A DNA stretch of 64,000 nt from a bacterium (GCA_041497675.1 JBGQGY010000003.1:335-64334); one strand, 5' to 3'; positions 913 through 51,030 are shown, counted from the first letter of the stretch. Notes: a model not told the origin generated them from the sequence alone. Numbers and translations are program-made.

Positions 913-1155
913 CTAGATGGTTTCATGACGCTCCATCAGCATGACGACGTGAGCCTTGTGCACCATGACGACGGACGCTTCGTAGAGCAGCCGGCCGTCG
1001 AGGGAGAACACCCGCGCAGACGTGATCGGCAGGAAGTCTTTGGCCGAGTTCAGCCGGTCAGAAATCCGCGCGGTCGAGGGCAGGTGCAGGTCGCCCTCGA
1101 TCCGGTGGTGCGGCGTGAACAGGATGACCTGTTCTCGGTCGAGCTCTGACTTCAT
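913..1155 (-). CDS. small conserved hypothetical protein (~80 aa), translationally coupled between MerR and the GspE ATPase
   Basis: Internal ATG start (MKSELDREQVILFTPHH...KAHVVMLMERHETI) within ORF 913..1263. The ATG overlaps the MerR stop (ATGA arrangement). No family recognised. Confidence 0.5.
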   Translation of the reverse strand: MKSELDREQVILFTPHHRIEGDLHLPSTARISDRLNSAKDFLPITSARVFSLDGRLLYEASVVMVHKAHVVMLMERHETI

Positions 1156-1433
1156 CGACCACTCCCACGGCCGTCCCCGGCCATTTCCACCGGGCGTGTG
1201 CTCTCGATCAACCGCTGGATGCCCTTGAGGCTCATGCCACGATCCACCATGGCCTTGACCCAACGGATGCGTTCGACATCGTCTTCACTATACAGGCGAT
1301 GGCCACCGCCGGTCCGGGCCGGGGAGAGCAGGTTGTACTGGTCCTCCCACGCTCGGATCCGCCGGGGGTTCACCCCGGTCAGGTGCGCGACCGTCCGGAT
1401 CGGATAGATCGGCGCGCGACGGTCCACAATCAT
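1152..1433 (-). CDS. MerR-family HTH transcriptional regulator
   Basis: YPIRTVAHLTGVNPRRIRAWEDQYNLLSPARTGGGHRLYSEDDVERIRWVKAMVDRGMSL matches the MerR N-terminal HTH pattern. Stop/start overlaps with both neighbours. Confidence 0.8.
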   Translation of the reverse strand: MIVDRRAPIYPIRTVAHLTGVNPRRIRAWEDQYNLLSPARTGGGHRLYSEDDVERIRWVKAMVDRGMSLKGIQRLIESTRPVEMAGDGRGSGR

Positions 1434-3007
1434 CGGCTTCCCCCTCCGCTTCCCGCCGCGCGCTGGGCTGTGGCCAGATCACGGTCGCGCGGTGGACCGT
1501 AGCCATGATCGCGCAGGTACGTGTAGATCTCCTGAAGTTTCGAGAACCCGTGAAAGTCGGGGCGATACTCCGATTCGAGCTTGTAGTCCAGTTCGACGTA
1601 CTTGTTCAGCGTCACGAAGAACGCATACTGGACGATGTTGGACGGCGCTTCAGGCGCGTCGCGGTTCTTGTCGATAAAGAGGTTGACGATGTCGACCTTG
1701 GGAAGATCGTCGGTGGCGAACCCCTCGGCCCGCGAGCGCGTCTCGATCAATTGCTGCAGGTCGTGGGTCGCCTTCCAGTCCTTGGCCAGCACCATCGCCA
1801 CGTCCAAGTCGTACTCGAGGTCGCCGGACCCCATGCTGTGGTGCATCGTCGGCCGGTTGAACGGGTTGAAGACCTCGCCTTCCTCCACCGGTCGCTCGTC
1901 GAGCCGACAGCCTTCTTTGTCCAGCGGCGAGATGGCAAAGATCGGGCAGTCGAGTTCGAGGCTCATCTCCGCCAGCGCGGTTGAGATTCGGTCCGTGCGG
2001 CCCTTCGAGTCGTCCAGGTGCTCGGGCAGCGGGATCTTTTGTAGGTAGTCAAAGAAGATGCAGATGTCCTGTGTCTGAAACTCCTGCATCAGGTTGTGGG
2101 CGTGCGCCCTGATCCGATCGAGTGTTTCCTTCCTGCCGGCCTCGACCAAATGCAGGAAGGGCCCGTAACGGGCGAGCTTGGACTGCGCCGAAGCGACTCG
2201 AGGACCGACCGGCCGGCCGTCCGTGTCGGCGCCGATCAAAATCGAGGTCGGGTTGAGACCGGTCTCTTTCGCGATGAGCCGCGCGGCCAAGACGCGCCGG
2301 GTTTGCTCCCACGTGTAATAGAGCACGGGGATCTTGTGGTTGACGGCCACGTGCACGGCCAGATCGAGCGCCAGGTTGGTCTTCCCGCGGCGCGGCGCGC
2401 CGGCAAGGCCATAGTAGAACCCGCGGCGCAGCCCCGAGAGCAGCGTGTTGAGCCGGTCGAAGGGGCTGATCGAAAACCCGAGGATCCCGTCACTGGCCAC
2501 CGGCCGCAATTCCAACAAGGGACTGAACGCCTCCGAGATCGGCGCCACCTGGCGCCGAATACGCCGCCGCTGGATCTCCATCAGATTGTGGACGCAGTCC
2601 GCCGTGAACTGCACGATGTCGGGGTGCTGGCCGTCCTGCCGGTACAGGTACCCACCGATCGATTCGTGGACTTGGCCGAGCAGGTCGCGGCTCTCGCGGG
2701 CTTTCAGCACGTCGACCTGGGCCATCGCCTCCCCGGCGCTCAACGGCGGGTTCTCGATCACGTTGGCCAGATACCGCTCCATCTCAGGCGTCAACAGGCC
2801 GCGGTCGACCAGATGGACGCGCAGGGTGGACTCATCGACGACGGCATCCTGGGCGGCGTAGAGGTCGATGATGACCTTGGCCAGCCGCCGCGCGAGTGGC
2901 GACGCCAGCAGATCAACATGAAACCCCTCCGTCGAGGCAAGGGTAATCAAATGCCGATCGCGGATAAATCCGCTAAGCAGACGGATTTCAATCTGGTACA
3001 GATCCAC
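1430..3007 (-). CDS. atypical DnaB-like helicase C-terminal domain (RecA-fold) ATPase, 525 aa
   Basis: Walker A GLAGAPRRGKTNLALDLAV, DnaB-like Walker B ICIFFDYLQKI, SGDLEYDLDVAMVL (compare DnaB SGSIEQDADVV). Has insertions and a long divergent C-terminal tail. Stop overlaps the MerR start, so it is the first gene of a four-gene minus-strand operon. Confidence 0.7.
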   Translation of the reverse strand: MDLYQIEIRLLSGFIRDRHLITLASTEGFHVDLLASPLARRLAKVIIDLYAAQDAVVDESTLRVHLVDRGLLTPEMERYLANVIENPPLSAGEAMAQVDVLKARESRDLLGQVHESIGGYLYRQDGQHPDIVQFTADCVHNLMEIQRRRIRRQVAPISEAFSPLLELRPVASDGILGFSISPFDRLNTLLSGLRRGFYYGLAGAPRRGKTNLALDLAVHVAVNHKIPVLYYTWEQTRRVLAARLIAKETGLNPTSILIGADTDGRPVGPRVASAQSKLARYGPFLHLVEAGRKETLDRIRAHAHNLMQEFQTQDICIFFDYLQKIPLPEHLDDSKGRTDRISTALAEMSLELDCPIFAISPLDKEGCRLDERPVEEGEVFNPFNRPTMHHSMGSGDLEYDLDVAMVLAKDWKATHDLQQLIETRSRAEGFATDDLPKVDIVNLFIDKNRDAPEAPSNIVQYAFFVTLNKYVELDYKLESEYRPDFHGFSKLQEIYTYLRDHGYGPPRDRDLATAQRAAGSGGGSR

Positions 3008-3317: not shown

Positions 3318-5654
3318 TTGGATCGGTCCCCGGACGAAGGCGCCATCCAGACTCTGAAAGCTTCCGTTGGCCTGCCCGCGGAGAGCCTGACGCTCGAACG
3401 GGCTTTCCTTCATGCGGAGGCACGCCAGGCCATGCGGTCCGCACAATGGGAGACCGCGCGCGACGCGCTGCAGCGTCTAGCGGCGGCCGATCCAGAGGAA
3501 CCATGGGTCTGCTGGGACCTGGCGGCGGCGTGCCGGGCGCTCGAGGACCACGAAGGCGCAGCTCTCGCGTATCTGACCGCGGCCGACAAGCACCTGGCCC
3601 GCGGCGAGACCGACCAGGTCCTCCAAGCGTACCAGCAGGCCGCCGCGATCTCGCCAAATGATCCGCAGATTCAAGCCAAGCTGGCGGAACCAGCCCCACC
3701 TCCATCGCAGCCCTCGGCAAGCCGGCCGGCAAACGCTTCACCGCGACCGGCGCCGCCCGCCGCGACCACGTCGCCGGAGACCGGTGCGCGTGCCGTGCCG
3801 GAGCGCAGCGACGCTCCGGTATTGCCAACGCCTCCCGGGCCATCGAAGGCCGACAAGCGAGGGGCGGCGGCGCCCGATGCACCTCCCACACCACCCGCGC
3901 GCGAGCCCGTCGACCCAGCATCCCAGGCGGCGCGGGCACCGCGGCCGCGACTGGGCAGCAAAACCGAGACGCTGGGCCAGGTGCTCCAGCAACTGGGCAT
4001 CATCACCGCCCACCAACTCAACGAATCGCTCGAGATTCAGGCGCGCACCGGCGAGCGCATCGGGCAAATCCTGCGCGACATGGGCGTGATCAGCGACACC
4101 GACCTGGCGCGCGCCATGGCGCACCAGTGGGCCTACCCGTACCTCTCCCTGGCGGAGCGGCGGCCAGATACTGAGATCGTCAGGCTGATCCCGCACGCGC
4201 TGGCGATGCGGCACAAGTGCGTCGCCGTCGAGCGCGCCGGGGGCCGGCTGCTCGTCGCGATCAGTGATCCGCTGAACGTCATCGCCGTCGACGACGTCCG
4301 CCTCATCACCGGCATGGAAGTCGACCTCGCGGTCGCCACCGAAGAAGACATCACCACCGCGCTGGCGCGCGGCTATCAGCTGTCCGACACGACGATTGAG
4401 AAGGTCCTGCGCGAGTCCTTACCCGATTCTGCGGGGGATCTCGGCGATGAGGATGTCTCGATCGAGCAGCTGAAGGCGTTGGTTGAGGAAGCGCCTGTCG
4501 TCAAGCTCGTCAACCTCGTAGTGGATGAGGCGGTCAAGCAAGGCGCCAGCGATATCCACGTCGAGCCGCAGCGCAACGGCGTCTGGGTGCGGTTTCGCGT
4601 GGACGGGGTGCTGCGCGACGTGATGAACCCGCCTAAGCACCTGAAGTCGGCGCTCGTCTCGCGCATGAAGATCATGGCTGAGATGGACATCGCCGAGCGC
4701 CGTCGCCCCCAGGATGGGCGCATCCATCTGATCGCCGATGGCCGCAACATCGACCTGCGCGTCTCGACGCTCCCCACGATGTATGGCGAGAAAATCGTGA
4801 TGCGCATCCTGGATCAAGCCCAGACCATGATCGGGCTGACCCGGCTGGGCTTCCACAGTGATACGCTCCGACAGTGGGAGAGCTCGGTCAGCAAACCCCA
4901 CGGGATGGTGTTGGTCACCGGGCCGACCGGGAGCGGGAAGACGACGACCCTCTACGCCACGCTGAGCAAGCTCAACACGCCCGAACTCAATGTCGTGACG
5001 GTCGAGGACCCCGTCGAGTATCAGATCAGCCGTATCAACCAGGTCCAAGTGAACATTAAAGCCGGCATGACCTTTGCCACCGCGCTCCGGCACATCCTGC
5101 GCCAGGACCCAGACATCGTCATGGTCGGTGAGATCCGCGACAAAGACACGGCCGAGATCGCGGTGCAGGCCGCACTCACCGGCCACTTGGTCCTCTCAAC
5201 GCTCCACACCAACGACGCGGCGGGCGCGGTCACGCGGCTGGTCGACATGGGGGTTGAACCGTTCCTGATCAGCTCGTCGGTCATTGGGGTGCTGGCGCAG
5301 CGTCTCGCCCGGGCCATCTGCTCCCGTTGCAAGGTCGCCTACTCGCCGCCACCCGAAGCGCTCGGCCGTCTCGGTGCGGATGTGCGAATCGATTCCGATG
5401 TGACCTTCTATAGAGGCCAAGGCTGCGAGTCGTGCCGCGGCACCGGTTACCGCGGTCGGATCGGCATCTTCGAACTGCTGATCATCAGTGACGCCGTCCG
5501 CGACCTGGTTGTCCACAACGCCTCCTCCACCGAGATCAAGGCGCAGGCGATCCGTGAGGGCATGCGCACGCTGCGGGATGACGGCCTCGAGAAAGTCATG
5601 TCCGGCATCTCCACCATCGACGAGATCCTGCGGGTCGTGTACGTCCAGGACTGA
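3318..5654 (+). CDS. PilB/GspE-family ATPase with N-terminal TPR-like domain and Pro/Ala-rich linker (778 aa)
   Basis: T2SSE_N-like region (LGQVLQQLGIITAHQL...), Walker A GPTGSGKTT, Asp box, Walker B DPDIVMVGEIRD, His box LVLSTLHTND, tetracysteine CSRC...CESC. TTG start at 3318; ATG at 3432 is an alternative. N-terminal ~100 aa TPR-like, then low-complexity P/A-rich segment. Confidence 0.9.
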   Translation: MDRSPDEGAIQTLKASVGLPAESLTLERAFLHAEARQAMRSAQWETARDALQRLAAADPEEPWVCWDLAAACRALEDHEGAALAYLTAADKHLARGETDQVLQAYQQAAAISPNDPQIQAKLAEPAPPPSQPSASRPANASPRPAPPAATTSPETGARAVPERSDAPVLPTPPGPSKADKRGAAAPDAPPTPPAREPVDPASQAARAPRPRLGSKTETLGQVLQQLGIITAHQLNESLEIQARTGERIGQILRDMGVISDTDLARAMAHQWAYPYLSLAERRPDTEIVRLIPHALAMRHKCVAVERAGGRLLVAISDPLNVIAVDDVRLITGMEVDLAVATEEDITTALARGYQLSDTTIEKVLRESLPDSAGDLGDEDVSIEQLKALVEEAPVVKLVNLVVDEAVKQGASDIHVEPQRNGVWVRFRVDGVLRDVMNPPKHLKSALVSRMKIMAEMDIAERRRPQDGRIHLIADGRNIDLRVSTLPTMYGEKIVMRILDQAQTMIGLTRLGFHSDTLRQWESSVSKPHGMVLVTGPTGSGKTTTLYATLSKLNTPELNVVTVEDPVEYQISRINQVQVNIKAGMTFATALRHILRQDPDIVMVGEIRDKDTAEIAVQAALTGHLVLSTLHTNDAAGAVTRLVDMGVEPFLISSSVIGVLAQRLARAICSRCKVAYSPPPEALGRLGADVRIDSDVTFYRGQGCESCRGTGYRGRIGIFELLIISDAVRDLVVHNASSTEIKAQAIREGMRTLRDDGLEKVMSGISTIDEILRVVYVQD

Positions 5655-5747: not shown

Positions 5748-6104
5748 CTAGACGAGCGCGGCAGCCAGCTGGCTGTTACGCCGCATCTCCAACCGGATGC
5801 GACCGAGATTGGCCTGTTTGCCGCCGACGACCACCATCATGGCGTCGGGGCCCGCCGGGCCGACCGCGATCGGACCGTCATCGTACTCGAGCAACATGCT
5901 GCGCATCGCCCCCCGGCTCATTTCGCGTCCCATCGAATCCGCCGCGGCCATGCTGCTGGCCACGATGGCGCCAACGGCCTCCAGGTCGATGGCCTCTTCA
6001 CTCGTCATCCCCTCGACGACAAACCCATCCCGGCCAACGACCAGGACGGCGACGACCCCCTCGACTTTGGCCAGGTCGCTGATGACATCCTTCAGCTGCG
6101 ACAT
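5748..6104 (-). CDS. Roadblock/LC7 (MglB-like) domain protein
   Basis: MSQLKDVISDLAKVEGVVAVLVVGRDGFVVEG...AIDLEAVGAIVASSMAAADSMG...MMVVVGGKQANLGRIRLEMRR matches the Roadblock/LC7 pattern. Internal ATG at 6104 with upstream AGGAGGGGAA; the longer ORF 5748..6248 is an antisense-style extension. Confidence 0.8.
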   Translation of the reverse strand: MSQLKDVISDLAKVEGVVAVLVVGRDGFVVEGMTSEEAIDLEAVGAIVASSMAAADSMGREMSRGAMRSMLLEYDDGPIAVGPAGPDAMMVVVGGKQANLGRIRLEMRRNSQLAAALV

Positions 6105-6153: not shown

Positions 6154-6969
6154 CTACAGTGTTCCGTGCGACGGTACGCCCATGACACCCCGCAGTTTGG
6201 TGAGCGCTGAGGCCAGCACCCGCGAGACATGTTTCTGCGAGATGCCAATTCTCTTTGAGGCTTCGGTCTGGGTGAGATCGGTGTAGAACAGGTAGTAGAC
6301 GACCTTGCGCTGTAGCGAGTTCAGGGATTCCATCGCTTCGACCAGCATCACGCGATCTTCTATGGGTAACTGGAAGCTGATGTGGGATCGGTGCTTGATG
6401 CGCTCTCGGTCGACGCGCAGGTCGCCGCCCTCTTCTTCGGTCTCAAGGGAGATCGTCCGGAGGGCCTCACGGGTACGCAGCACCTCGAGCAGCCCTTCCT
6501 CTTCGATATTGAGCTCGGAGGCCAGCTCTTCCAGCCCGGGAAACCGCCCCTCTTCCGCAACGTATTTGCCGACGGTGTCCTCGATCTGGGTGTTGAGCTT
6601 CTGCAGCCAGCGCGGTTTCCGAATCGTGTCGCGCTGATCCCGCAGGTAATGGCGGATCTCGCCGCGGACCAGATAGCTCGCGTACGTCGCGAACTTCGCG
6701 CCCCGCGTCGGATCGAAGGCCGCGATGGCATTGAGCAACCCGATGTACCCCACCTGCACGAGATCGTCGGTCGGAACACCCGAGAACACAAATTCTGAGG
6801 CGATGCGCCGCACCAGCGGCGTGCACGCGTGGACGACTCGTTCTCGGATCGCTGGGTCGGGGCTCTCGACGTACTGGGCCATCAATACATCTTCGTTCTC
6901 GTGCTCGGTCACACGGGGTGTGATCTGCTCTTGTCGAACCGGTGCGCGTTGCGCGCTGCGGACTGCCAT
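6154..6969 (-). CDS. RNA polymerase sigma factor, sigma-70 family group 3 (SigB/SigF/FliA-like)
   Basis: Region 2 DLVQVGYIGLLNAIAAFDPTRGAKFATYASYLVRGEIRHYLRD; region 4 HTH LTQTEASKRIGISQKHVSRVLASALTKLR. GGAGG lies 6 nt upstream of the ATG at 6969. Confidence 0.85.
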   Translation of the reverse strand: MAVRSAQRAPVRQEQITPRVTEHENEDVLMAQYVESPDPAIRERVVHACTPLVRRIASEFVFSGVPTDDLVQVGYIGLLNAIAAFDPTRGAKFATYASYLVRGEIRHYLRDQRDTIRKPRWLQKLNTQIEDTVGKYVAEEGRFPGLEELASELNIEEEGLLEVLRTREALRTISLETEEEGGDLRVDRERIKHRSHISFQLPIEDRVMLVEAMESLNSLQRKVVYYLFYTDLTQTEASKRIGISQKHVSRVLASALTKLRGVMGVPSHGTL

Positions 6970-7031: not shown

Positions 7032-7110
7032 CCCTTCGGCAGCCCGGCCAACCGTGACGGTCCCGGAGCTTTGCGCCCCCACCTTGCGATGGGTTTGCCC
7101 TTTCGAGGAT
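7032..7110 (-). promoter_or_regulatory. c-di-GMP-I (GEMM) riboswitch-like aptamer A, leader of the sigma factor/Roadblock operon
   Basis: Minus-strand RNA: UCGAAAGGGCAAACC-CAUC-GCAA-GGUGGGG-GCGCAAAGCUCCGGGACCGUCACGGUUGGCCGGGCUGCCGAAGGG. GGCAAACC box, GCAA GNRA-capped hairpin, GCGCAAAGC junction. About 85% identical to element B at 12046..12140. Confidence 0.7.
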
Positions 7111-7257: not shown

Positions 7258-8199
7258 TTACCGGGCCGCGGATGCCCCCGCCGCGGGACGGGATCGGCTG
7301 ACGTACTTGAACGCCAGTCGGTGTGAAACCAGTGCCTCCAGAATGCCCCCGACTTGGGCCGGCGTCAAGCCCGTTTCGGAGGCAATCTCGGCCAGGGTGT
7401 GCGCGCCGTCGAGGAGACGCAGAACCGTCCCGGTGACGCCGTTGCTCACGACCCCGGCGAGCTCCGCGGCGACGTCCGAAGGCAGATTCTCCGCGACACC
7501 CGGCGATAGCAGATACCGTGCCTCCCGGGCGAACCGGCCGAAAACAGCTTCCAGTTCCCGCGACGGCGCTGCGGGCGGTGGCGGCGCGACCTCAGGCTGC
7601 GCACCCGCCTCCTCGACCGCGGCGACCTTGATCGCCGGGACCTCGATCACCGGGACGTCAACCGGCGCAGCGTCGACGGGCGCAACGTCGGCGGGCGCAG
7701 CGTCGACCACCGCAATGGGTTCTGAGGCCGGCGTGACGACTGAGACTGTCTGCGCCTGCAGCGAGCCGGTGATGACGATGATCCATCCCCTGGCCTGCTT
7801 CATGACGGCGCCAGACGTCGCTGCCGACGCCGGCTCGATGACGGCGAGCGCTCCCCCATTGAGGTCCAGCACCGCTGGTTTGGGTCCGAGCACGAGCACT
7901 ACGGCGCTCGCTTGGTCAGACTGTAGACGGGCGATGTAGCGGTCGAGGTGGACGAAGTCAGTATGCAGCGCCGCGCCTGAAAATTCTAGTGACGCGATCC
8001 GCTCCACGACGTCCTTGCGCAGCCGTAACTGAGCGGATTCCGCGCGGGCCGGTGGACCATCGGCGAACACCGCATCCGGCGCGCCGACATGCCAGCCGCT
8101 GGGCCCAAAGACCGCCGCGCAGGGCGTCGATGCTTCGAAAATCGCCGCCACGCCTCCGAGCCAAGCGTAATGAGTAATCCTGGCAGTCGCGGCGGCCAC
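7258..8199 (-). CDS. hypothetical protein with C-terminal HTH-like segment and internal (APVDA)n low-complexity repeat
   Basis: 313-aa ORF with uniform codon use. C-terminal ...VLRLLDGAHTLAEIASETGLTPAQVGGILEALVSHRLAF resembles a winged-helix/HTH. Last gene of the riboswitch-B operon; start is 4 nt after the upstream stop. Confidence 0.55.
   Translation of the reverse strand: MAAATARITHYAWLGGVAAIFEASTPCAAVFGPSGWHVGAPDAVFADGPPARAESAQLRLRKDVVERIASLEFSGAALHTDFVHLDRYIARLQSDQASAVVLVLGPKPAVLDLNGGALAVIEPASAATSGAVMKQARGWIIVITGSLQAQTVSVVTPASEPIAVVDAAPADVAPVDAAPVDVPVIEVPAIKVAAVEEAGAQPEVAPPPPAAPSRELEAVFGRFAREARYLLSPGVAENLPSDVAAELAGVVSNGVTGTVLRLLDGAHTLAEIASETGLTPAQVGGILEALVSHRLAFKYVSRSRPAAGASAAR
7664..7708. 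repeat. 15-bp tandem repeat x3 (ggcgcagcgtcgacg) inside the CDS
   Basis: ggcgcagcgtcgacg / ggcgcaacgtcggcg / ggcgcagcgtcgacc, coding APVDAAPVDAAPVD on the minus strand. Confidence 0.7.
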
Positions 8200-8202
8200 G
8201 AC

Positions 8203-8979
8203 TCAGATGTCCTCCTGTACCGTCCGCTGCCAGAAACCACCCAGCGCGAGAAAGACGAAGCCCGCCACCCACAGCGCATTGATCGTGTGGACTTCCGAGT
8301 AGAGTTCGTACCAGCTGAGAAACGCGTAGCCCAGACTGGCGACCGCCAGACAGAGCGCCGAGGCGGCGACGGCCAGCCAGGTATATGCCGAGGTGCCGCC
8401 GCGAAACCCGACGGCGGGTAGCAACCCCGCGGGCACGAGAAAGACCGCGATGGTCGGATAGAAGACCGCCAGCACCTTCACCGTTGTCGGCGCCGGACTG
8501 GCCATGATCGGGCTCACGATGAACTCGAAGCCAAGCGCCCACCCCACGACACCGAGTCCCACCAGCGCGAGGCGGACCGGGCGATCGACCATTGGTGCAA
8601 CCAACCGGATCTCCAGACCGAGGGCGAGACCAAGCAGCAGGTAGAAGACGACGAAGAACCCGTCGGCGATCGACGGGTACGGCAGTGCCCGTCCCCCCCA
8701 CCATTGGTAGAACGCAAAGACCCCGCGGCCGGCCGCCCAGGCTAGCGCCGCCAGCCCCCCGATGGACCACACCGCGCGCTCGCGATCGCCCGACACGTAG
8801 GCGCGTCGAGCCGCGAGGCACCCGATACCGGCAAGGATCGGCGCAACGATCTGAACTGCCGAGCCCAGCACGTGTCGGGCCAGGCGGCCCTGGAGGCTGG
8901 TTTCTGCCGCACCGTACGCGTAGGCGGCGGCCAGGACAAGGCCGCCCATGACGATGAGCAGCACGCGAAAACGCTTCAT
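8203..8979 (-). CDS. integral membrane protein, ~7 predicted TM helices (258 aa), unknown function
   Basis: MKRFRVLLIVMGGLVLAAAYAY... followed by multiple hydrophobic stretches. ATG at 8979 overlaps the upstream stop (ATGA). The longer 353-aa ORF has an Arg-rich N-terminal extension that looks like antisense or out-of-frame readthrough. Confidence 0.65.
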   Translation of the reverse strand: MKRFRVLLIVMGGLVLAAAYAYGAAETSLQGRLARHVLGSAVQIVAPILAGIGCLAARRAYVSGDRERAVWSIGGLAALAWAAGRGVFAFYQWWGGRALPYPSIADGFFVVFYLLLGLALGLEIRLVAPMVDRPVRLALVGLGVVGWALGFEFIVSPIMASPAPTTVKVLAVFYPTIAVFLVPAGLLPAVGFRGGTSAYTWLAVAASALCLAVASLGYAFLSWYELYSEVHTINALWVAGFVFLALGGFWQRTVQEDI

Positions 8980-9830
8980 CGAGCCGCTCCGGAGTCGCCG
9001 GCACCTGCCGCGTCGCGTTCGGCTGCGGCAATCGCCCGGTCGACGAACGCACGACCGGCGACGGCGATGATCGGTTCGCACGCCGTCTCGACGATGACCC
9101 GCCACGACGCCTCGGAGATCGGAGGCGCATACACGCGGGTTCCGTCGACCCGGCCGCCATGCGGCGCGAGCGCGGCGGCGAGCGTCGATGTGAACCGCTG
9201 GGCGAGCCGCTGGCCGCGATGACGCGCTACCCGTTCGGCCACGCCTTCCATGGTGCGCGGCCACGGTCGGGTCGACGCCTCAACGGGGGCCACGGGTTCC
9301 GTCGCCACCACGCGCTCGCCGGCAGCAGTCGCTCGCGCTGGCGGCGCTTCGCTCACCGGGGCGACCGGCTCGACGACCGGCGGAGCGGTCACCACCTCAG
9401 CCACCTCCGCCGGCTCAACCGCTGGCATCGACTGCGACGTCACGAGGCTCTGCCCTGGGACTTTGAAGACCGTCGCCGGGGCTGCGGACGGTGGGCCCGC
9501 CGCCTGTCCGAAGGCGACGTCTGGCGGCGCGCCCACATACACGCTCAGCGTCGAACCGTTTGACGCCATCTCGCGGAAGAGGTCGTGCCCGCCGGCACCG
9601 GCCAGCACGGCCTCTCCGCCGTCAACGTCAAAGAACCAGGCGTCCTGCGCCTCGCCCTCGTGCACCCAGACCAGGCTCTCCATTTCGAGGTCGGCGAGGT
9701 AGATGCCGCCTTCAAACCCGCGGCCGATCAAATGCGCCAGCAGCCCGTCGATATCCACCGCATCGCCGGGGAAGTCGGTGACTAAGGCCGGTCCGGCCCG
9801 GAGCACTTCGAGTGCTTGACGCCGGTTCAC
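8976..9830 (-). CDS. hypothetical protein, DUF4388-like N-terminal motif (tentative), Pro/Ala/Val-rich middle
   Basis: GDAVDIDGLLAHLIGRGFEGGIYL resembles the DUF4388 G-x-x-x-F-x-L-x-D-L-L-Q-x-L...G-x-L signature as I recall it. Probable GTG start at 9830, with AGGAG 5 nt upstream and 8 nt after the TAXI gene stop. Confidence 0.5.
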   Translation of the reverse strand: MNRRQALEVLRAGPALVTDFPGDAVDIDGLLAHLIGRGFEGGIYLADLEMESLVWVHEGEAQDAWFFDVDGGEAVLAGAGGHDLFREMASNGSTLSVYVGAPPDVAFGQAAGPPSAAPATVFKVPGQSLVTSQSMPAVEPAEVAEVVTAPPVVEPVAPVSEAPPARATAAGERVVATEPVAPVEASTRPWPRTMEGVAERVARHRGQRLAQRFTSTLAAALAPHGGRVDGTRVYAPPISEASWRVIVETACEPIIAVAGRAFVDRAIAAAERDAAGAGDSGAAR

Positions 9831-9838
9831 GTGAGCTC

Positions 9839-10810
9839 CTACTTGATGCCTCGCTCCCTGTAGAAACGCAGAGCGCCGGCATGCATCGTAATTGGCATCC
9901 CCGAGCGTGACGTGTTGGTCGTAATGTCCTTGCCGCGCGCATGGGCGGCCTGCAATCGGTCGGTGTTGGTCCACAGCGCCGAGGTCAACGTGTAGATCAG
10001 GGCTTCCTCGATGTCCTGACGCGTCACCAGCATCGCCATCACCGCTGCGGTATCCACTGACTCGGTCTGGCCCTTGTAGGTGTTGGCCGGTACCGTCACG
10101 CGTGTGTAATAGGGGTACTGCTCGCGCAGCATCTCCACGACGTCTCTTGGGATCGCCAGGACCTTCAGGTCGCGGCTGGACGCGATATCCTGTACAGCCG
10201 CTGTCGGGAACCCCGCTGTAATGAACGCCGCGTCGATCACGCCATCCTTCAACTGATCGGCGGCCTCGGCGAAGTTCAGGAAGTCCGGCCGCGTGTTGTA
10301 ATAGCCGAGTTCAAACGCGCGGAGAATCTGACGCGCGTTGATCTCGGTGCCGCTGCCCGGCGCGCCGACGGCGATGCGCTTGCCCTTGAGATCGGCGATC
10401 GAATTGATGTTCTTGGACTTCAGCGTGACGACCTGAATCGTCTCCGGATACAACATCGCCATGCCTCGAAGATTCGCGATCGGCTGGGTCTTGTTGGCGA
10501 CGCGATCCATAAACATCTCGGTCCCGTGGAAGGCGTAGTAGGTGATATCGTTCTGGATGAACGCCACCGCCACGTCGCTCCGCTGTAGCAGGCGGATGTT
10601 GGCGACCGAGGCGCCGGACGTCTGCGCCGTCGCCTGGACGTTTGGCACCTTGCCGCTCCACACTTCCGCCAGCGCCGCGCCCAACGGGAAGTAGACACCC
10701 GCCGTGCCGCCCGTTGCAATGGCGACAAACGTGCGCTGTTGGGCCATGGCGGGCCAGACGGCTACGCTGAGCACCGCCAGTATGACGATTCCGAGTGTGA
10801 TCCGACGCAT
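9839..10810 (-). CDS. TAXI-family TRAP transporter solute-binding protein (orphan, no DctQM permease adjacent)
   Basis: Signal peptide MRRITLGIVILAVLSVAVWPAMA; VAIATGGTAGVYFPLGAALAEV matches the TAXI signature. Start codon choice among M1, M9 and M16 is uncertain. Confidence 0.8.
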   Translation of the reverse strand: MRRITLGIVILAVLSVAVWPAMAQQRTFVAIATGGTAGVYFPLGAALAEVWSGKVPNVQATAQTSGASVANIRLLQRSDVAVAFIQNDITYYAFHGTEMFMDRVANKTQPIANLRGMAMLYPETIQVVTLKSKNINSIADLKGKRIAVGAPGSGTEINARQILRAFELGYYNTRPDFLNFAEAADQLKDGVIDAAFITAGFPTAAVQDIASSRDLKVLAIPRDVVEMLREQYPYYTRVTVPANTYKGQTESVDTAAVMAMLVTRQDIEEALIYTLTSALWTNTDRLQAAHARGKDITTNTSRSGMPITMHAGALRFYRERGIK

Positions 10811-12045: not shown

Positions 12046-12140
12046 TGCCCCTTCGGCAACCCGGCCGGCCGCGCGGTTGGACGTCCCGCGCGCCCCCGTG
12101 GCTTTGCGTCCCCACCTTGCGATGGGTTTGCCCGTTCGGA
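12046..12140 (-). promoter_or_regulatory. c-di-GMP-I (GEMM) riboswitch-like aptamer B, leader of the SBP/DUF4388/7TM operon
   Basis: Minus-strand RNA: CCGAACGGGCAAACC-CAUC-GCAA-GGUGGGG-ACGCAAAGCCACGGGGGCGCGCGGGACGUCCAACCGCGCGGCCGGCCGGGUUGCCGAAGGGG. It has the GGCAAACC box, a GNRA-capped hairpin and GGGACGCAAAGCC, which matches the Vc2 junction exactly. Confidence 0.75.
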
Positions 12141-12261
12141 GGCTCTATGCAGTTTGCGGTGCTACCTTTTCTCTACCCCGCCGCGGCTTCGCCTAGACCT
12201 CTGCCTACCCTCCAACAGATGTCCCGAGAGTTGCGGCAGGGTTCCTCCAAGAAGCCATACG

Positions 12262-13191
12262 CTAGAGCGAGAGCAATCGACGGTACAGCTGCGTGACGTT
12301 GTAGACGTACCACTTGGTCTCGTCATAGGGCGGGATGCCTTCATAGCGTTCCACCGCGGCGCGGCCCGCATTGTACGCGGCCAGGGCGAGATGCACGTTG
12401 TCGTATCCGAACCGATCGAGGTTGCCACGCAAGTACCGGATCGTCCCGTAGAGGTTTTGCACGGGATCCTGTGGATCGACGCCCAATGCCCGCGCTGTAT
12501 CCGGCATCAACTGGCCCAATCCCAGTGCCCCCGCCCGCGACGTCACATGCGGTTGGAATCCGGACTCGACCACGACGAGAGCCACGACCAAACGCGGGTC
12601 GATGTTGAATCGATACGAGTATCCGAGCAGCGCCTGCGCGATCTTCTCTGCAACCTCGGGCTGGAGTCTCGGGTTGTAGTAACGCGCGAGCTGCGTATAG
12701 CTCTCAATCGTCGTGACCCACGCCGGCGCCGTCGGTGCGCCGCCCTTCAACGCCGCCAGTTTTGGCACGGGCTTGACGACCCGTAGCCCCTGCAGCGCCA
12801 GCTCGTGGATGCGGTCAGATCCTGGTGCCAGCAGGGCGCGCTGAAACGCCACCTCGGCCTCCCCGGACCGGCCGCCCTGGGCGAGGACGTATCCCCACCA
12901 CAACAGCACGGTGGAATCGCGTGGCGCCAGACGGACCGCCGATTCAAGCACCTGCACCGCCAGCCGTGGCTCGCCCCGATAGTGGTAGACGATCCCAAGC
13001 CACAACCAGCCCTCGGGGTCACTCGGCCGCTGCGCAACCTCGCGGGTGAAGACCGCTTCGGCGTCGCGCAGGCGGCCCTGTGCGACCAGCGCCGCGCCCT
13101 CCCGGAGCGCCGCCGGACCGCTCGGGGCCGCGACGGCCGAGCCGGCCGCAAGAGTGATCAGCAACACGAGCAGGATCACGCCGGTCTTCAT
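12262..13191 (-). CDS. TPR-repeat lytic transglycosylase (SLT domain)
   Basis: Signal/TM MKTGVILLVLLITLAAGSAVA, TPR-like repeats, then an SLT core VVVESGFQPHVTSRAGALGLGQLMPDTA...AYNAG. ATG at 13191 overlaps the Roadblock stop. Confidence 0.8.
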   Translation of the reverse strand: MKTGVILLVLLITLAAGSAVAAPSGPAALREGAALVAQGRLRDAEAVFTREVAQRPSDPEGWLWLGIVYHYRGEPRLAVQVLESAVRLAPRDSTVLLWWGYVLAQGGRSGEAEVAFQRALLAPGSDRIHELALQGLRVVKPVPKLAALKGGAPTAPAWVTTIESYTQLARYYNPRLQPEVAEKIAQALLGYSYRFNIDPRLVVALVVVESGFQPHVTSRAGALGLGQLMPDTARALGVDPQDPVQNLYGTIRYLRGNLDRFGYDNVHLALAAYNAGRAAVERYEGIPPYDETKWYVYNVTQLYRRLLSL

Positions 13192-13547
13192 CCCAGTTGC
13201 TCCACGATCTCGGCCTTCCGGCGCCGTATCTGCAGCCGTGCCCGGGCCAGATTGCCGCCGGCATCGAGCACGGTCGCCACATAGTGTATCTGGCTCACCG
13301 CCATCACCAAGACCGCCAGGCTTTCGGTCGTGAGCGTCACGTAGTCCAGATCCCCGCCCTCGAGCTTCCGAGTGCAATAGGCCCCCACTTTGATCAGCGC
13401 GGCCAGGTCGACACTGGCTTTGGAGAGGTCGCTCGGGCCGCCCTTCGTCACCGCCTCGATGACAGTACCATCCATTGCCACGACCGCGGCGGCACGCGTG
13501 TCGTCGCCCACGAGCTCCTGCAAGATGCCTCTTAGTTTGGTTCCCAT
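13188..13547 (-). CDS. Roadblock/LC7 (MglB-like) domain protein, second copy
   Basis: MGTKLRGILQELVGDDTRAAAVVAMDGTVIEAV...VDLAALIKVGAYCTRKL...LAVLVMAVSQIHYVATVLDAGGN. Start taken at M47 of the listed ORF; M33 at 13589 is an alternative. Confidence 0.75.
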   Translation of the reverse strand: MGTKLRGILQELVGDDTRAAAVVAMDGTVIEAVTKGGPSDLSKASVDLAALIKVGAYCTRKLEGGDLDYVTLTTESLAVLVMAVSQIHYVATVLDAGGNLARARLQIRRRKAEIVEQLG

Positions 13548-13651
13548 GCTCGGCCCCGGGCGGCCGTCAGTGTTCGCCAATGACCCCATGCCTCCTGCCG
13601 AGAAGAGGAATTGTCGATGGCGGCATCGTAGCATCGCCCGGGGAAGGTGAC

Positions 13652-14620
13652 ATGCACACCGCGTTGATCGAACGCATCCGCACACATCGCCGGATCCTGA
13701 CCAGCCGTTGGTCGAAGGCCCTGAAAGAGGCCCCCGGCGCGAACCCGTGGTGGCAAGACACTGAACGGACCGATCGACTCCTGTTCGCCGGCCTTGAAGC
13801 CCTGATCGAGGCCGTGAGCTCCGGCAACGATGAGTTGTTCGTCGCCTTCGCCTCGCGCCTCAGCCAGGAGGCCTTCGCGCTCCAGGTTCCACCCAATGTC
13901 GTCATCCGCGCCATCCTGACCGGAAAGGTCATTGTCACCGAGTTCCTGACCGAACCCGACTCCTCGCCTGGCCTCGACGTCGCCACCGTGCAGTCGCTCG
14001 ATCGGGTCGTCTCCGCCGGCATCCTCGAAGGGATCCGGCGGCACGAACGACAGCGCGAACGCCGGCTGCTCACCGCGCAAGAGCAGCTCGAGCAGCTGCG
14101 CGACCGCCTCCGCCGTCAGGTCGTTGTCGACCCGGCGACGGGTCTCTACAACGCCAACTACTACTCGATCGCCGTGCGCCGCGAAGTTCGCCGTAGCCAG
14201 CGGTTCGGCCGCGTCTTTTCGCTCGCCCTCGTCGCCCCCGACAAAGATGACGGGGTCCGCGACGCCTGGGGCGACGAAGGTCTGCGTGCCGTGTCGATCA
14301 CACTCGCCGACATCCTGACCCGCTGCACCCGGCAGGTCGATCTGCGGGCGGCGCTCGGCGGCGTCCGCTTCGGTCTGATCCTGCCTGAAACGCCGATGGA
14401 GGGCGCGTTCGTGCTCGCCGAGCGCATCCGCGTCGCGGTCGAACAGCAGGCGTTCACACTCCCCGATCACCCATCCCCCGTGACACAGACTGTCAGTATC
14501 GGGCTGGCGAGTTTCCCCCGCGATGCCGAAGATGACCGAGGGATGCTCTCCCGGCTCGAAGAGGCCCTGGCGCGCGCTCGCGGTGGCGGCAACACGACCG
14601 TCGCTGCCGCGTCGGCATAG
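13652..14620 (+). CDS. GGDEF-domain protein with degenerate active site (GGVRF) and intact RxxD I-site; probable c-di-GMP receptor
   Basis: DPATGLYNANYYSIAVRREV...RQVDLRAALGGVRFGLILPET. RQVD lies 5 aa before GG(V)(R)F. Internal ATG (MHTALIERIRT) chosen because the upstream part of the ORF overlaps the divergent Roadblock gene. Confidence 0.75.
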   Translation: MHTALIERIRTHRRILTSRWSKALKEAPGANPWWQDTERTDRLLFAGLEALIEAVSSGNDELFVAFASRLSQEAFALQVPPNVVIRAILTGKVIVTEFLTEPDSSPGLDVATVQSLDRVVSAGILEGIRRHERQRERRLLTAQEQLEQLRDRLRRQVVVDPATGLYNANYYSIAVRREVRRSQRFGRVFSLALVAPDKDDGVRDAWGDEGLRAVSITLADILTRCTRQVDLRAALGGVRFGLILPETPMEGAFVLAERIRVAVEQQAFTLPDHPSPVTQTVSIGLASFPRDAEDDRGMLSRLEEALARARGGGNTTVAAASA

Positions 14621-14641
14621 CCCCGTCGCGTCCTCGCCGCC

Positions 14642-16264
14642 TTATCGCTCCCGCCACAGGCGTAGTTGCACTTCGAACGGCGGTTTTACCTGCAGCACCC
14701 TGAGAAACACGTCGACCAGTTCCGGATCCAGCGTCGTCCCGGCCAGCGCACGCAGTTCATCCATCGCTTCGGCGACGGTCCGGCCACGGCGGTACGGACG
14801 GTCGGATATCATCGCATCAAACGTCTCTGCCACGCGTATGATGCGGGCACCCAGCGGAATCGCGTCGCCCGCAAGCCCGTCCGGGTAGCCGCTGCCGTCG
14901 TACGCTTCTTGATGGTGCTTCACGTCGTCAACCAGCGGACGAAACGGCGCCATCTCGCGGAGAATGGCCGCGCCGCGTTCGGGGTGCTGGTTCATCGCCT
15001 TGCGCTCGTCATCGCTGAGCGCGGCGCGCTTGCGCAGCACGCCCTCCGGCGCGCTGATCTTCCCGATATCATGGAGGAGGCTCGCCCACTGGATGCGCTC
15101 AACCTCTCCAGGGGGCAGGCCGATCTCCGTCGCGACGGCCACCGCATTGGCGGCCACGCGCTGTGAGTGCCCCTGCGCGTAGGGATCCTTGGCCTCCAGC
15201 GCCGCAGCCAGGGTGTTCACGGCGCTCAGCAAGAACTCACGCGATTGACTGTGCATTTGCGCGTCATGCAATGGAGGCGACGCCATCTCGGCCAGGGTAT
15301 ACGTCGCGCCCAGATGCTCGTCCCTGAAGAGCCGGATCCCGCGCCGTGCCAAGTGCACCACGCCAAACGATCGCTCGGCCGCGCGCAGCGGCACGAGCAG
15401 CGCCGATCCCGTCGCATCGTCGCCAAATACGCTCACCCACCGTGCGTCCGTCGACGCGTCGACGACCAGTTGTGGCAGACCGGAGCGCATGGCCTCCTCG
15501 ACCACGGCCGCTGAGTCCAGCACCTCTCCACGCGCGCGGAGCCTGCCGGCGGCGTCGAGACCGGCTTCGATGACCAGCCGCTGCTCGATATCCAGCACGG
15601 CGACCAGTCCGTAGTCCGCGTCGGCCAGATGCAGCGACCGATCGAGGAGCCTGCGGGCGCGATCGGCCAACGGCTGCCCGGCCATGGCGGTCAAGGTCGC
15701 GTGGATCTGCGCGGACACGTGCACGCGCCGGTTGAGTTCCTCGGCGCCGCGCAGCGCCGATTGCATCGCTTCAGTACGACGCTGTTCCATGAACCCGACG
15801 AGCAGTCCGATCAGCATCAGCAGCGCGGCCCTGGGGAGGATCCCCGCGGCAGGTTGGGAGTGGAGCGTAATCGCGGCCGCGTACCCCAGGGCAGAGACCC
15901 AACCGCCGACGACTCCCGCCACCAGACCGCGCCCGGCCGTCCCCCAGATCAGCACCGGCACATAGAAGAAAAAGAAGAAGCTCGTCATCCCGCCGGTCTC
16001 GCCCACGAGCAAGGACACGATGAGTAGCTCGAGGATCGTGCCGACGTAGGAGGCGACGTGCGGCCCAGACTGGCTGGGCGCCAGCGCGCTCAGCAGCCCG
16101 GCTGGGAACAGGAGCAATAGGAGAAGCGCGGAGGTGAGGCTGGGGCTCGCACGGTCGGTCTGTGTCCCGATCAACAGGACCGAAAACCCAAACAGTACCG
16201 CCAACCCGCGGAGATAGAGCGCCCACCATTCGAAGGGGGCCTTCTGGGCCGCCGATTTCATCAC
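14642..16264 (-). CDS. membrane-anchored GAF/HD-GYP c-di-GMP phosphodiesterase
   Basis: N-terminal multi-TM region, a GAF-like middle, HD (LHDIGK) and HHEAYDGSGYP (HD-GYP signature). Confidence 0.8.
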   Translation of the reverse strand: MMKSAAQKAPFEWWALYLRGLAVLFGFSVLLIGTQTDRASPSLTSALLLLLLFPAGLLSALAPSQSGPHVASYVGTILELLIVSLLVGETGGMTSFFFFFYVPVLIWGTAGRGLVAGVVGGWVSALGYAAAITLHSQPAAGILPRAALLMLIGLLVGFMEQRRTEAMQSALRGAEELNRRVHVSAQIHATLTAMAGQPLADRARRLLDRSLHLADADYGLVAVLDIEQRLVIEAGLDAAGRLRARGEVLDSAAVVEEAMRSGLPQLVVDASTDARWVSVFGDDATGSALLVPLRAAERSFGVVHLARRGIRLFRDEHLGATYTLAEMASPPLHDAQMHSQSREFLLSAVNTLAAALEAKDPYAQGHSQRVAANAVAVATEIGLPPGEVERIQWASLLHDIGKISAPEGVLRKRAALSDDERKAMNQHPERGAAILREMAPFRPLVDDVKHHQEAYDGSGYPDGLAGDAIPLGARIIRVAETFDAMISDRPYRRGRTVAEAMDELRALAGTTLDPELVDVFLRVLQVKPPFEVQLRLWRER

Positions 16265-16294
16265 ACCATCGATTATGCCCCCAGATCAAACCGG

Positions 16295-16822
16295 TCAGAC
16301 CGGCTCCTGCGGCGTGATGCCGCGGCGGGCCAGTATCGCCAGAGCCAGACGCTCGGCGTGACGCAGCATGCGTGTGCGCAGCGCCTCGCGCGGCGACAAC
16401 GGCGCCGTCAACACCGTCGGCACCCCCAACCGGTTCCCGGCCAGGATATCCGTGAAGAGCTGGTCACCGACCATCGCGGTCCGCGGTGGCGCCGTACCAA
16501 GCAGCTCCAGGGCATGCCGGAGCTTCGATACGCTGGGTTTGTAGGTGCCAAGGGAGAACGGGAGCCCCAACGCGGCGGCGGCTTCGCGCACGCGTTGGTT
16601 CACGTTGTTCGACACCAGGCAGGCGGGGATGTGCGAGCGCCGGATGTCGTCGATCCACGCGCCCACCGGGCCGGGCGGGGCGGCCTCTCTCCACAGCACG
16701 AGCGTGTTGTCTAAGTCGAGCATCAACGCGTCGATCTGCCAGGCGCGCAGGACGGCCGGTGTGAGATCGGTCACGGCGCGCACCCGATACCGCGGCGCGA
16801 GCAGTCGCAGCAGGTCAATCAC
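16295..16822 (-). CDS. yqeG: HAD-superfamily phosphatase, YqeG-like
   Basis: LMLDLDNTLV, SNN, GDQLFTDI motifs. Position after mltG matches the Firmicutes-type yqeG neighbourhood. Confidence 0.7.
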   Translation of the reverse strand: MIDLLRLLAPRYRVRAVTDLTPAVLRAWQIDALMLDLDNTLVLWREAAPPGPVGAWIDDIRRSHIPACLVSNNVNQRVREAAAALGLPFSLGTYKPSVSKLRHALELLGTAPPRTAMVGDQLFTDILAGNRLGVPTVLTAPLSPREALRTRMLRHAERLALAILARRGITPQEPV

Positions 16823-48129: not shown

Positions 48130-49121
48130 AGCAGACGGTGGACGGTCAGCAGCGAGAGCGCCACAGCGGCTACAAGAGAGCCGAGCGCGGCGCCCGCCGC
48201 AACCGACGTCACCTCGGTGGGCTTATTCTCCCAACCGATTTCGCGGCCCAACTGCCGGTAGACGCGACGGAGTTCGCCCGCGTTGGTCGTGCGGTAGTAC
48301 GACCCCCCGGTCGTCTCGGCCATGGCGCGCAGCGTCTCTTCATCAAGCCGGACCCAGATGCTGCGCCCGCCTACGCTGAGAAACGTCCCTTCGGGAGTCC
48401 CCACGCCGATCGTGTAGGTTTTCACCTGCAGGTCGCGCGCAATCTTCGCCGCTTCTAACGGGAGCGTCCCGCGGTTGCTCTGCCCGTCCGACAACAGGAC
48501 CACCACGGCCGGAGGCAGCGGCCCCGCCGGCGGGGGCGGCGGGGACCCGGGTGTCAGCGGGCGCGGTCGACCCGGAAGGTTCCAGATCGCTTCGAGCAGC
48601 CCGTCCCCGATGGCGGTGGCGAACTCCGTGTTGAGCATGTCGATGGCGTCGAGCACGCGGGCCCGGTCGCCTGTTGGCCGGAGGATGGTCGTCGCGTAGC
48701 TGCTGAAGCTGACCAACCCCACCCTGAATCCCCGTGGGAGCGCGTTGACGAACTCGCGCGCGGCCAGTTTGGCGGCTTCCATCCGGTTCGGTGGAAGATC
48801 TTCGGCCAGCATGCTGCGGCTCACGTCGATCGACAGGACGACGACCCCGCTGTTGGCAGGCACCGGCAGCGGCGCGACCGGGCGCGCCAACCCGACGATC
48901 GTCGTGGCGATCGCCAGGAGGACCAGCAACGCGGGCACGTGACGGCGCCATCGGCTGTGCCGCGCCGCGGCCTGGATCAACAGCGCTAGGTTGGGGATGA
49001 GCACGGCGCGGCGCGGCGGGCGCACGAGGAGCCGCACGTACAGCCACACCGCCGGCGGCAGGAGCGCTAAGCCCCACAGCATGAAGGGCCACTCGAACGT
49101 CACGGCACCCGCCTGAACCAC
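48126..49121 (-). CDS. VWA-domain protein (BatA/BatB-like)
   Basis: FEWPFMLWGLALL N-terminal TM, VVVLSIDVSRSM MIDAS motif, C-terminal TM. Confidence 0.8.
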   Translation of the reverse strand: MVQAGAVTFEWPFMLWGLALLPPAVWLYVRLLVRPPRRAVLIPNLALLIQAAARHSRWRRHVPALLVLLAIATTIVGLARPVAPLPVPANSGVVVLSIDVSRSMLAEDLPPNRMEAAKLAAREFVNALPRGFRVGLVSFSSYATTILRPTGDRARVLDAIDMLNTEFATAIGDGLLEAIWNLPGRPRPLTPGSPPPPPAGPLPPAVVVLLSDGQSNRGTLPLEAAKIARDLQVKTYTIGVGTPEGTFLSVGGRSIWVRLDEETLRAMAETTGGSYYRTTNAGELRRVYRQLGREIGWENKPTEVTSVAAGAALGSLVAAVALSLLTVHRLL

Positions 49122-51027: not shown

Positions 51028-51030
51028 GCG

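Follow-up and report, generated by a model that had tools for sequence, protein, structure and literature searches.

A 64,000-nucleotide stretch of bacterial DNA (GCA_041497675.1 JBGQGY010000003.1:335-64334; the window, in which positions are counted from the first letter) carries a gene for a protein with a degenerate GGDEF domain. Comparison with its relatives makes it reasonably probable that this protein descends from RsbRD_N-GGDEF proteins, has lost catalysis and now acts as a receptor for cyclic di-GMP (c-di-GMP), bound at the inhibitory site (I-site) of the domain. A non-catalytic, c-di-GMP-binding GGDEF domain is favored because the I-site is invariant in all 70 orthologues and the GG[DE]EF signature occurs in none of them. 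The gene and its parts, including the active site (A-site) of the domain, are located as follows.

13652..14620 (+): degenerate GGDEF gene, 322 residues; open reading frame (ORF) with 70 co-linear orthologues of 322-327 residues
13652..14119 (+): probable N-terminal all-helical globin-like sensor domain (residues 1-~105) and long stalk helix (residues 110-155); AlphaFold2, Foldseek and hhalign
14123..14590 (+): GGDEF domain, catalytically degenerate (residues 158-313); Pfam PF00990, 66.3 bits, and PDB alignments
14330..14341 (+): RQVD, the RxxD motif of the primary inhibitory site (R227 and D230); aligned to 3IGN, 6D9M, WspR and a PleD-family protein
14357..14371 (+): GGVRF, degenerate A-site (residues 236-240); aligned to GGEEF
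14423..14425 (+): R258, putative I-site arginine in the AERIR helix; invariant in 70 of 70 orthologues

An earlier, sequence-only reading of this region had placed the gene and its neighbor on the opposite strand at 13652-16264, and both these coordinates and the start of the GGDEF gene prove exact by the ORFs and the co-linear orthologues. The gene is enclosed in a longer ORF (13475..14620, +), and the start at 13652, which gives a product beginning MHTALIERIR, is correct because the 70 orthologues align from that methionine. The protein contains a single GGDEF domain, with a Pfam score well clear of the 23.8-bit cutoff, and 40 PDB GGDEF chains match it at E <1e-3. In phmmer alignments GGVRF falls on the GGEEF of solved cyclases (3IGN, 6D9M and WspR, 3I5C) and RQVD on their RxxD motifs (RQSD in 3IGN, REVD in 6D9M and RSSD in WspR), while a BLASTP alignment with a PleD-family regulator places RQVDLRAALGGVRF over RGVDLVARLGGEEF. 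The spacing between RQVD (residues 227-230) and GGVRF (from G236) is exactly five residues, and no second GG..F or R..D motif is found in the 322-residue protein. The sequence-only reading, which took GGVRF for an A-site that has lost its DE pair and RQVD, five residues upstream, for an I-site, is thus supported: GGVRF falls on the GGEEF of PleD-type cyclases and of WspR, no orthologue departs from R227 or D230, and the protein has no intact GG(D/E)EF elsewhere.

The degeneracy extends beyond the A-site signature of active cyclases, GG[D/E]EF, whose place is taken by GGVRF. The lysine of DxDxFK is replaced by D200 and the first aspartate of DxD by alanine, and the positions of the guanine-binding asparagine and aspartate, which we equate with N335 and D344 of PleD, are occupied by R203 and R212. 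The second, metal-binding aspartate of DxD is kept as D197, presumably the equivalent of PleD D327. By contrast with these losses, the sequence has the features of an I-site receptor: the RxxD motif five residues upstream of the A-site is accompanied by R258, which we take, from the offset of the 1W25 match, to be the counterpart of the PleD I-site arginine R390, and by R184, which the alignment with 3I5C pairs with WspR R198.

The family to which this protein belongs is sharply bounded, with clusters P0001-P0073 scoring 269-688 bits and the next match 104 bits, and all of its members come from metagenome-assembled genomes (MAGs) labelled Armatimonadota, bacterium, Candidatus Fervidifonticultor or Nitrosymbiomonas. 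Across the alignment of 70 orthologues (49-100% identity, 67% mean column identity) the A-site follows the pattern G-x-[G/A/V/T/S]-R-F, with a variable second position (G, S, A, P or D) and a small residue at the third. The equivalents of N335 and D344 are arginine in most members, and the first aspartate of DxD is alanine or serine. None of the 70 sequences departs from R227, D230, R258 or R184; only 17 of the 156 columns of the domain are invariant, and a crude random-placement estimate from this fraction puts the chance of all four named positions being invariant at ~1e-4. The dN/dS of the gene against three orthologues (L001, L002 and L004) is 0.14-0.20; it is maintained under purifying selection and is not decaying.

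An exhaustive profile search also recovered more distant relatives of equal length, which match the degenerate GGDEF protein over almost its full extent and which keep the RYGG[DE]EF, RxxD, DxDxFKxxND and GHxxGD motifs. These relatives match Pfam RsbRD_N and GGDEF, the latter at 153-185 bits as against 66.3 bits for the protein in the window, and hhalign aligns the two families over 321 columns with 100% probability (E 3.9e-44). Given this full-length profile homology and the intact motifs of the relatives, the protein has, by sequence, branched off and degenerated from RsbRD_N-GGDEF proteins whose catalytic motifs are intact and which are themselves presumably active cyclases.

The N-terminal domain gives no direct Pfam match up to E 10, RsbRD_N (PF14361) included; the intact-motif relatives score 17-39 bits for this family, with three of five exceeding the 24.3-bit cutoff. 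An AlphaFold2 model of the domain and stalk (pLDDT 93.7, pTM 0.84) leads from a helical bundle into a 45-residue helix, and its best Foldseek matches in the PDB are the sensor globins BpeGReg, DosC and AfGcHK, together with pXO2-61 and phycobiliproteins. These matches have TM-scores of 0.55-0.63 and E-values of 0.007-0.06, none at E <=0.001, so that the fold assignment is of moderate strength; a profile search of the domain against PDB sequences yielded nothing significant (DosC globin, E 0.68). There is no conserved histidine in the helix formed by residues 61-76, which we take to be the heme-proximal (F) helix, and the only histidine-rich columns in the domain and stalk are 12, 43 and 131 (53-70%). 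Heme binding is therefore unlikely, and a heme-containing globin-coupled sensor was ruled out on these grounds. The model is most readily read as a non-heme globin-like sensor.

These features suggest how the protein might work. c-di-GMP would bind to the surface formed by RxxD and R258 of the degenerate domain and, as in product-inhibited cyclases, would fix the relative position of the GGDEF domains in a dimer joined by the long helix of residues 110-155. The positional change could then be passed on to the globin-like domain or to a bound partner, for which the Roadblock/LC7 protein encoded next to it would be the likeliest candidate by gene neighborhood.

Several observations weigh against this interpretation. 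The I-site RxxD and the equivalents of R258 and R184 are invariant also in the intact-motif relatives, which means that conservation of these residues does not single out a receptor, and retention of the I-site could partly be a structural constraint from the ancestor. The remodelled A-site is itself conserved, with R239 (the arginine of GGVRF) invariant in 70 of 70 sequences, E246 invariant and D197 present in 69 of 70, which hints at a function that a receptor model does not explain. Adjacency to the Roadblock gene is found within a ~15-kb block that is syntenic in all of the 16 genome loci that we sampled (carrying orthologues of 51-79% identity), and is for this reason weak evidence for an interaction between the two proteins. 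The first of these points bears most directly on the possibility that the protein is a c-di-GMP-independent pseudoenzyme, with a structural RxxD motif, that serves as a scaffold, an adaptor or a heterodimer partner titrating or regulating RsbRD_N-GGDEF paralogues. Full-length homology to the intact-motif proteins makes heterodimers through the N-terminal domain and stalk conceivable, and the good conservation of the N-terminal domain (64% mean column identity) also speaks for such a role. We nevertheless regard it as unlikely, if worth keeping in mind, given that RxxD is unchanged in all 70 sequences, the most distant at 49% identity, while the adjacent catalytic and substrate positions have changed.

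The gene that faces the degenerate GGDEF gene encodes a membrane protein with GAF and HD-GYP domains, whose parts are as follows.

14642..16264 (-): membrane GAF/HD-GYP gene, 540 residues; ORF and Pfam, convergent with the GGDEF gene
15785..16228 (-): integral-membrane N-terminal region (residues 13-160) with 5-6 hydrophobic segments; Kyte-Doolittle
15287..15670 (-): GAF domain (residues 199-326); Pfam GAF_2, 37 bits, E 4.9e-9
14717..15214 (-): HD-GYP catalytic domain (residues 351-516); Pfam HD_5/HD, HD_5 at 142.5 bits, and PDB matches
14882..14917 (-): HHQEAYDGSGYP motif (residues 450-461); sequence and PmGH alignment

The gene order common to the 16 loci is Peripla_BP_6, TPR/SLT and a small ORF (-), the GGDEF gene (+), and then HD-GYP (-), HAD, MltG, DUF1292, RuvX and AlaRS. 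The GGDEF and HD-GYP genes have 21 bp between their stop codons (TAG and TAA), with no terminator found between them, and do not form an operon because they are convergent. The HD-GYP gene is present, or truncated by a contig end, in 13 of the 16 loci and is cleanly missing from the other three (L001, L002 and L015), among them the closest relative, L001, at 79% identity; in these three the GGDEF gene, the Roadblock gene and all flanking genes are retained. The pattern resembles a clean presence/absence polymorphism amid otherwise perfect synteny, and the HD-GYP gene is an accessory rather than an obligatory neighbor, its pairing with the GGDEF gene being loose. In these loci only ~80-120 bp lie between the GGDEF and HAD genes (L001 8963-9050, L002 7591-7671 and L015 1441-1559).

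This arrangement bears on the proposal that the two proteins form a dedicated sensor-degrader pair in which, for example, the receptor controls or localizes the phosphodiesterase. Such a pair would be compatible with an I-site receptor, both proteins are c-di-GMP-related, and their genes lie side by side in 13 of the 16 loci. The convergent orientation, however, excludes co-transcription, the HD-GYP gene can be lost while its neighbors remain, adjacency is expected from shared ancestry where the whole region is syntenic, and the HD-GYP protein has membrane and GAF input domains of its own. We therefore consider a dedicated pair rather improbable; the sequence-only reading, in describing a sensor paired with a degrader, overstated what convergent genes, one of them absent from three of 16 syntenic loci, can support.

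That reading had correctly recognized a multi-transmembrane GAF/HD-GYP protein, as borne out by the Pfam matches and the hydrophobic segments; no credible Pfam match for the transmembrane region itself was found up to E 10. It had quoted the signature motif as HHEAYDGSGYP, which is wrong: the sequence reads HHQEAYDGSGYP (H450-H451-Q452-E453-AYDGSGYP), the omitted residue being a glutamine at the second histidine of HHE. The closest solved relatives of the protein are V-cGAP3 (5Z7C), PmGH (4MCW) and PA4781 (4R8Z), and its key residues are H366, H398-D399, H427, H451, Q452, G459-Y460-P461, D483 and R489-P-Y-R492. The HD (H398-D399) and GYP (G459-Y460-P461) motifs are thus both present. PmGH has eight metal ligands, E185, H189, H221, D222, H250, H276, H277 and D305 (PMC4159591), of which six are kept here as H366, H398, D399, H427, H451 and D483. 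H451 aligns on PmGH H276 and Q452 on H277, so that the canonical HHExx[D/N]GxGYP is broken by a glutamine at the second metal-ligand histidine; H450 is not conserved, its orthologues having F, Y or S. The HQE variant is found in 56 of 57 relatives with the same transmembrane-GAF-HD-GYP architecture (proteins P0315-P0376), down to ~40% identity, and is a trait of this subfamily; among the 121 motifs of the more remote REC-HD-GYP relatives, 120 are HHE. No description of it was found in a survey of HD-GYP proteins (bioRxiv 10.1101/2021.11.05.467447).

At the position of PmGH E185, the acidic ligand of the third metal, the protein has a tyrosine (KDPY..GH) and so belongs to the Y/F subfamily, for which Bellini et al. 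predicted a binuclear site (PMC4159591). The RPYR sequence at residues 489-492 corresponds to the RxY[K/R] motif for guanine recognition, tied to specificity for c-di-GMP (bioRxiv 10.1101/2021.11.05.467447). Specificity for cyclic GMP-AMP (cGAMP), raised by the best PDB match, V-cGAP3, was disfavored on account of this motif, which is of the c-di-GMP type. The H277A mutant of PmGH is inactive (PMC4159591), although Galperin and Chou consider that the absence of a key histidine may be tolerated in some RpfG-type enzymes (bioRxiv 10.1101/2021.11.05.467447). On sequence, the protein probably still hydrolyzes c-di-GMP at a binuclear metal site; the glutamine at the position whose mutation kills PmGH counts against this, and leaves activity plausible but not assured. 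The earlier description of an HD-GYP phosphodiesterase accordingly holds for the domain, while the enzymatic part of it is an inference, qualified by HQE in 56 of 57 relatives and by the tyrosine at the E185 position.

A last alternative, that the remodelled A-site (R239, D197 and E246) has gained a new catalytic or ligand activity, such as hydrolysis of nucleoside triphosphates (NTPs) or binding of another nucleotide, is very improbable: the near-complete conservation of these three residues indicates that the degenerate A-site is selected and not simply decaying, and the degenerate GGDEF domain of GdpP reportedly hydrolyzes NTPs, but the guanine-binding Asn/Asp and the lysine of DxDxFK are replaced, A-site position 2 is variable and position 3 small, and we know of no enzyme with an A-site motif of this type, which counts against a new activity.

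On its other side, the degenerate GGDEF gene is flanked by two genes on the opposite strand.

13188..13547 (-): divergent Roadblock/LC7 gene, 119 residues; hhalign, and PF03259 on some orthologues
12262..13191 (-): TPR and SLT lytic transglycosylase gene, product secreted or anchored; Pfam SLT, 77.6 bits, and TPR families

The Roadblock/LC7 gene adjoins the GGDEF gene, divergently transcribed, in 16 of 16 loci, and its small product, with 78% mean column identity, is better conserved than the degenerate GGDEF protein itself. It gives no direct Pfam match up to E 10; the assignment comes from an hhalign comparison with a second, clear Robl_LC7 protein of the window (94% probability, E 1.1e-7, 108 columns) and from precomputed PF03259 matches for four clusters of its orthologues. 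The ATG of the TPR/SLT gene overlaps the Roadblock stop codon (ATGA), and from this overlap the two genes are read as co-transcribed and translationally coupled. The pair runs divergently from the GGDEF gene across ~100 bp; this intergenic region (13548-13651) is conserved only in patches among 12 loci, where neither an operator nor an RNA motif stands out, and nothing in 13100-16500 exceeded shuffle expectation when scanned for promoters and terminators. This invariant Roadblock/LC7 neighbor, the N-terminal sensor domain and the descent from intact-motif cyclases were all missed by the sequence-only reading.

That reading had also invoked riboswitches, and two Rfam matches exceed their gathering scores.

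12052..12142 (-): c-di-GMP-I aptamer; Rfam RF01051, 57.5 bits against a gathering score of 35
7034..7108 (-): c-di-GMP-I-GGC variant aptamer; Rfam RF03167, 63.5 bits against a gathering score of 59

The first lies between the SLT/TPR and Peripla_BP_6 genes, all co-directional, and a member of the c-di-GMP-I clan (CL00126) occupies the syntenic place in eight of eight related loci. Two loci without a Peripla_BP_6 gene still have the aptamer: in L008 it stands in the same place (6335-6421), before homologues of the window ORFs 8976-9974 and 7258-8199, and in L012 at 6406-6501. The homologues of these two ORFs may be conserved cargo regulated by the c-di-GMP-I aptamer. Between the two riboswitches the window has two or three ORFs with high G+C content at third codon positions (GC3) and no Pfam family, namely 7258-8199 (-), with a weak HTH_IclR match at its C-terminus, 8203-9264 (-) and 8976-9974 (-); the last two overlap, so that the gene models are uncertain.

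The second aptamer, likewise kept in eight of eight related loci, lies directly upstream of a sigma-70-family gene (6154-6969, -) with regions 2, 3 and 4, which is followed by the clear Robl_LC7 gene (5748-6104, -; 56 bits). A c-di-GMP-I-GGC aptamer before a sigma factor and a Roadblock gene is an unusual arrangement; to our knowledge, the ligand of this variant is not established. Convergent with the sigma/Roadblock operon, 3318-5654 (+) encodes a 778-residue PilB/GspE-type ATPase (T2SSE, 482 bits) that has TPR repeats at its N-terminus and an MshEN domain (72 bits). Because MshEN modules are known to bind c-di-GMP, this PilB-like ATPase is a likely second c-di-GMP effector in the window. Judged by these predicted elements, c-di-GMP is clearly in use in the lineage, in keeping with a receptor role of the degenerate GGDEF protein. 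Neither tblastn nor Pfam scans of 52 ORFs, selected by length and GC3, found a second GGDEF or HD-GYP domain in the 64-kb window, and no EAL, PilZ or MglA-like GTPase families were found among these ORFs. The earlier remark that there is no local synthase therefore holds for the window; little follows from it, since diguanylate cyclases work in trans.

These elements allow a more far-reaching and quite speculative proposal, to which we give little credence at present: the degenerate GGDEF protein and the Roadblock/LC7 protein would together form a c-di-GMP switch, in which binding at the I-site, possibly with the A-site arginine, alters the Roadblock interaction and so controls the cell envelope or a type IV pilus (TPR/SLT, MshEN-PilB). 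If true, the switch would lie within a ~12-kb c-di-GMP regulon of the uncultured phylum CSP1-3/Sysuimicrobiota, along with a sigma factor, two riboswitches and a second Roadblock gene, and would provide a GTPase-independent analogue of the CdgA/MglA-type polarity hubs.

The window has a G+C content of ~65% and probably comes from an uncultured soil or hot-spring bacterium. Candidatus Fervidifonticultor is placed by the NCBI taxonomy in Candidatus Sysuimicrobiota (CSP1-3). Loci L006, L008, L009 and L014 belong to MAGs titled 'Armatimonadota' at NCBI and have the locus in common with Candidatus Fervidifonticultor; since MAGs so titled share the locus with a CSP1-3 genus, the window is probably from CSP1-3 and not from Armatimonadota proper. 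Unrelated to the GGDEF gene, the window also has a string of two BatA/VWA genes and a TPR gene with a MoxR-type AAA_3 ATPase gene nearby (46570-52080, -), resembling a Bat aerotolerance-like operon. At 1152-3007 (-), a gene for a MerR-family regulator (93 residues) lies directly downstream of one for a 525-residue protein with a DnaB_C/AAA_25 (RecA-like) domain.

A published description of the CSP1-3/Sysuimicrobiota phylum makes no mention of c-di-GMP (PMC11604079). The degenerate GGDEF protein would be a second-messenger receptor of a fairly ordinary type, found in a lineage without described c-di-GMP signaling. Receptors are the least complete section of the c-di-GMP parts list, and each lineage-specific example illustrates the conversion of a cyclase into a sensor; here the series is a clean one, from intact-motif RsbRD_N-GGDEF proteins to a derived branch whose A-site is dead while its I-site is intact. 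The analysis further offers a candidate output partner in the Roadblock/LC7 protein, an HQE subfamily of HD-GYP proteins and a first sketch of c-di-GMP signaling in CSP1-3/Sysuimicrobiota. None of this overturns current understanding, and its value lies in annotation and hypotheses.

Among known systems, PelD, PopA and SgmT are degenerate GGDEF receptors for c-di-GMP, with N-terminal GAF and transmembrane parts in PelD, REC-REC in PopA and a kinase in SgmT. Listeria PssE is likewise an I-site c-di-GMP receptor (PMC4125290), and CdgA of Bdellovibrio, another c-di-GMP receptor, carries a GVNEF motif and has a TPR protein and RomR as binding partners within the MglA polarity hub (PMC3983030). The protein described here shares with all of these the GGDEF fold, the dead A-site and an RxxD motif five residues upstream. 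It differs from them in its RsbRD_N-like, globin-like N-terminal domain, in a G-x-G-R-F motif with an invariant arginine and in its Roadblock neighbor; its family is limited to one uncultured clade, and c-di-GMP binding is predicted here. No pairing of Roadblock and GGDEF proteins was found described in the literature, the nearest case being CdgA in the MglA hub of Bdellovibrio, an organism without MglB. The small neighbor resembles MglB/Roadblock-LC7 by profile match, yet is very divergent, and no MglA-like GTPase was found among the 52 ORFs.

The HD-GYP protein resembles PmGH of Persephonella and V-cGAP3 in the order of its GAF and HD-GYP domains and in its HD, GYP and RxY[K/R] motifs; unlike PmGH, it has an additional domain of 5-6 transmembrane segments, tyrosine for E185, glutamine for H277 and KRA at the KPG motif. 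The succession of a sensor-globin-like domain, a long helix and a GGDEF domain recalls DosC of Escherichia coli and BpeGReg of Bordetella, from which the degenerate GGDEF protein is distinguished by the absence of a conserved heme-proximal histidine and by a GGDEF domain that is inactive by sequence. Closest of all are the uncharacterized RsbRD_N-GGDEF proteins (P0174, P0186, P0235 and others): these have RYGG[DE]EF, DxDxFKxxND and GHxxGD, all three of which are missing from the degenerate protein, and the two groups have in common the same architecture, with a length of ~320-345 residues in the intact-motif proteins, and the RxxD motif.

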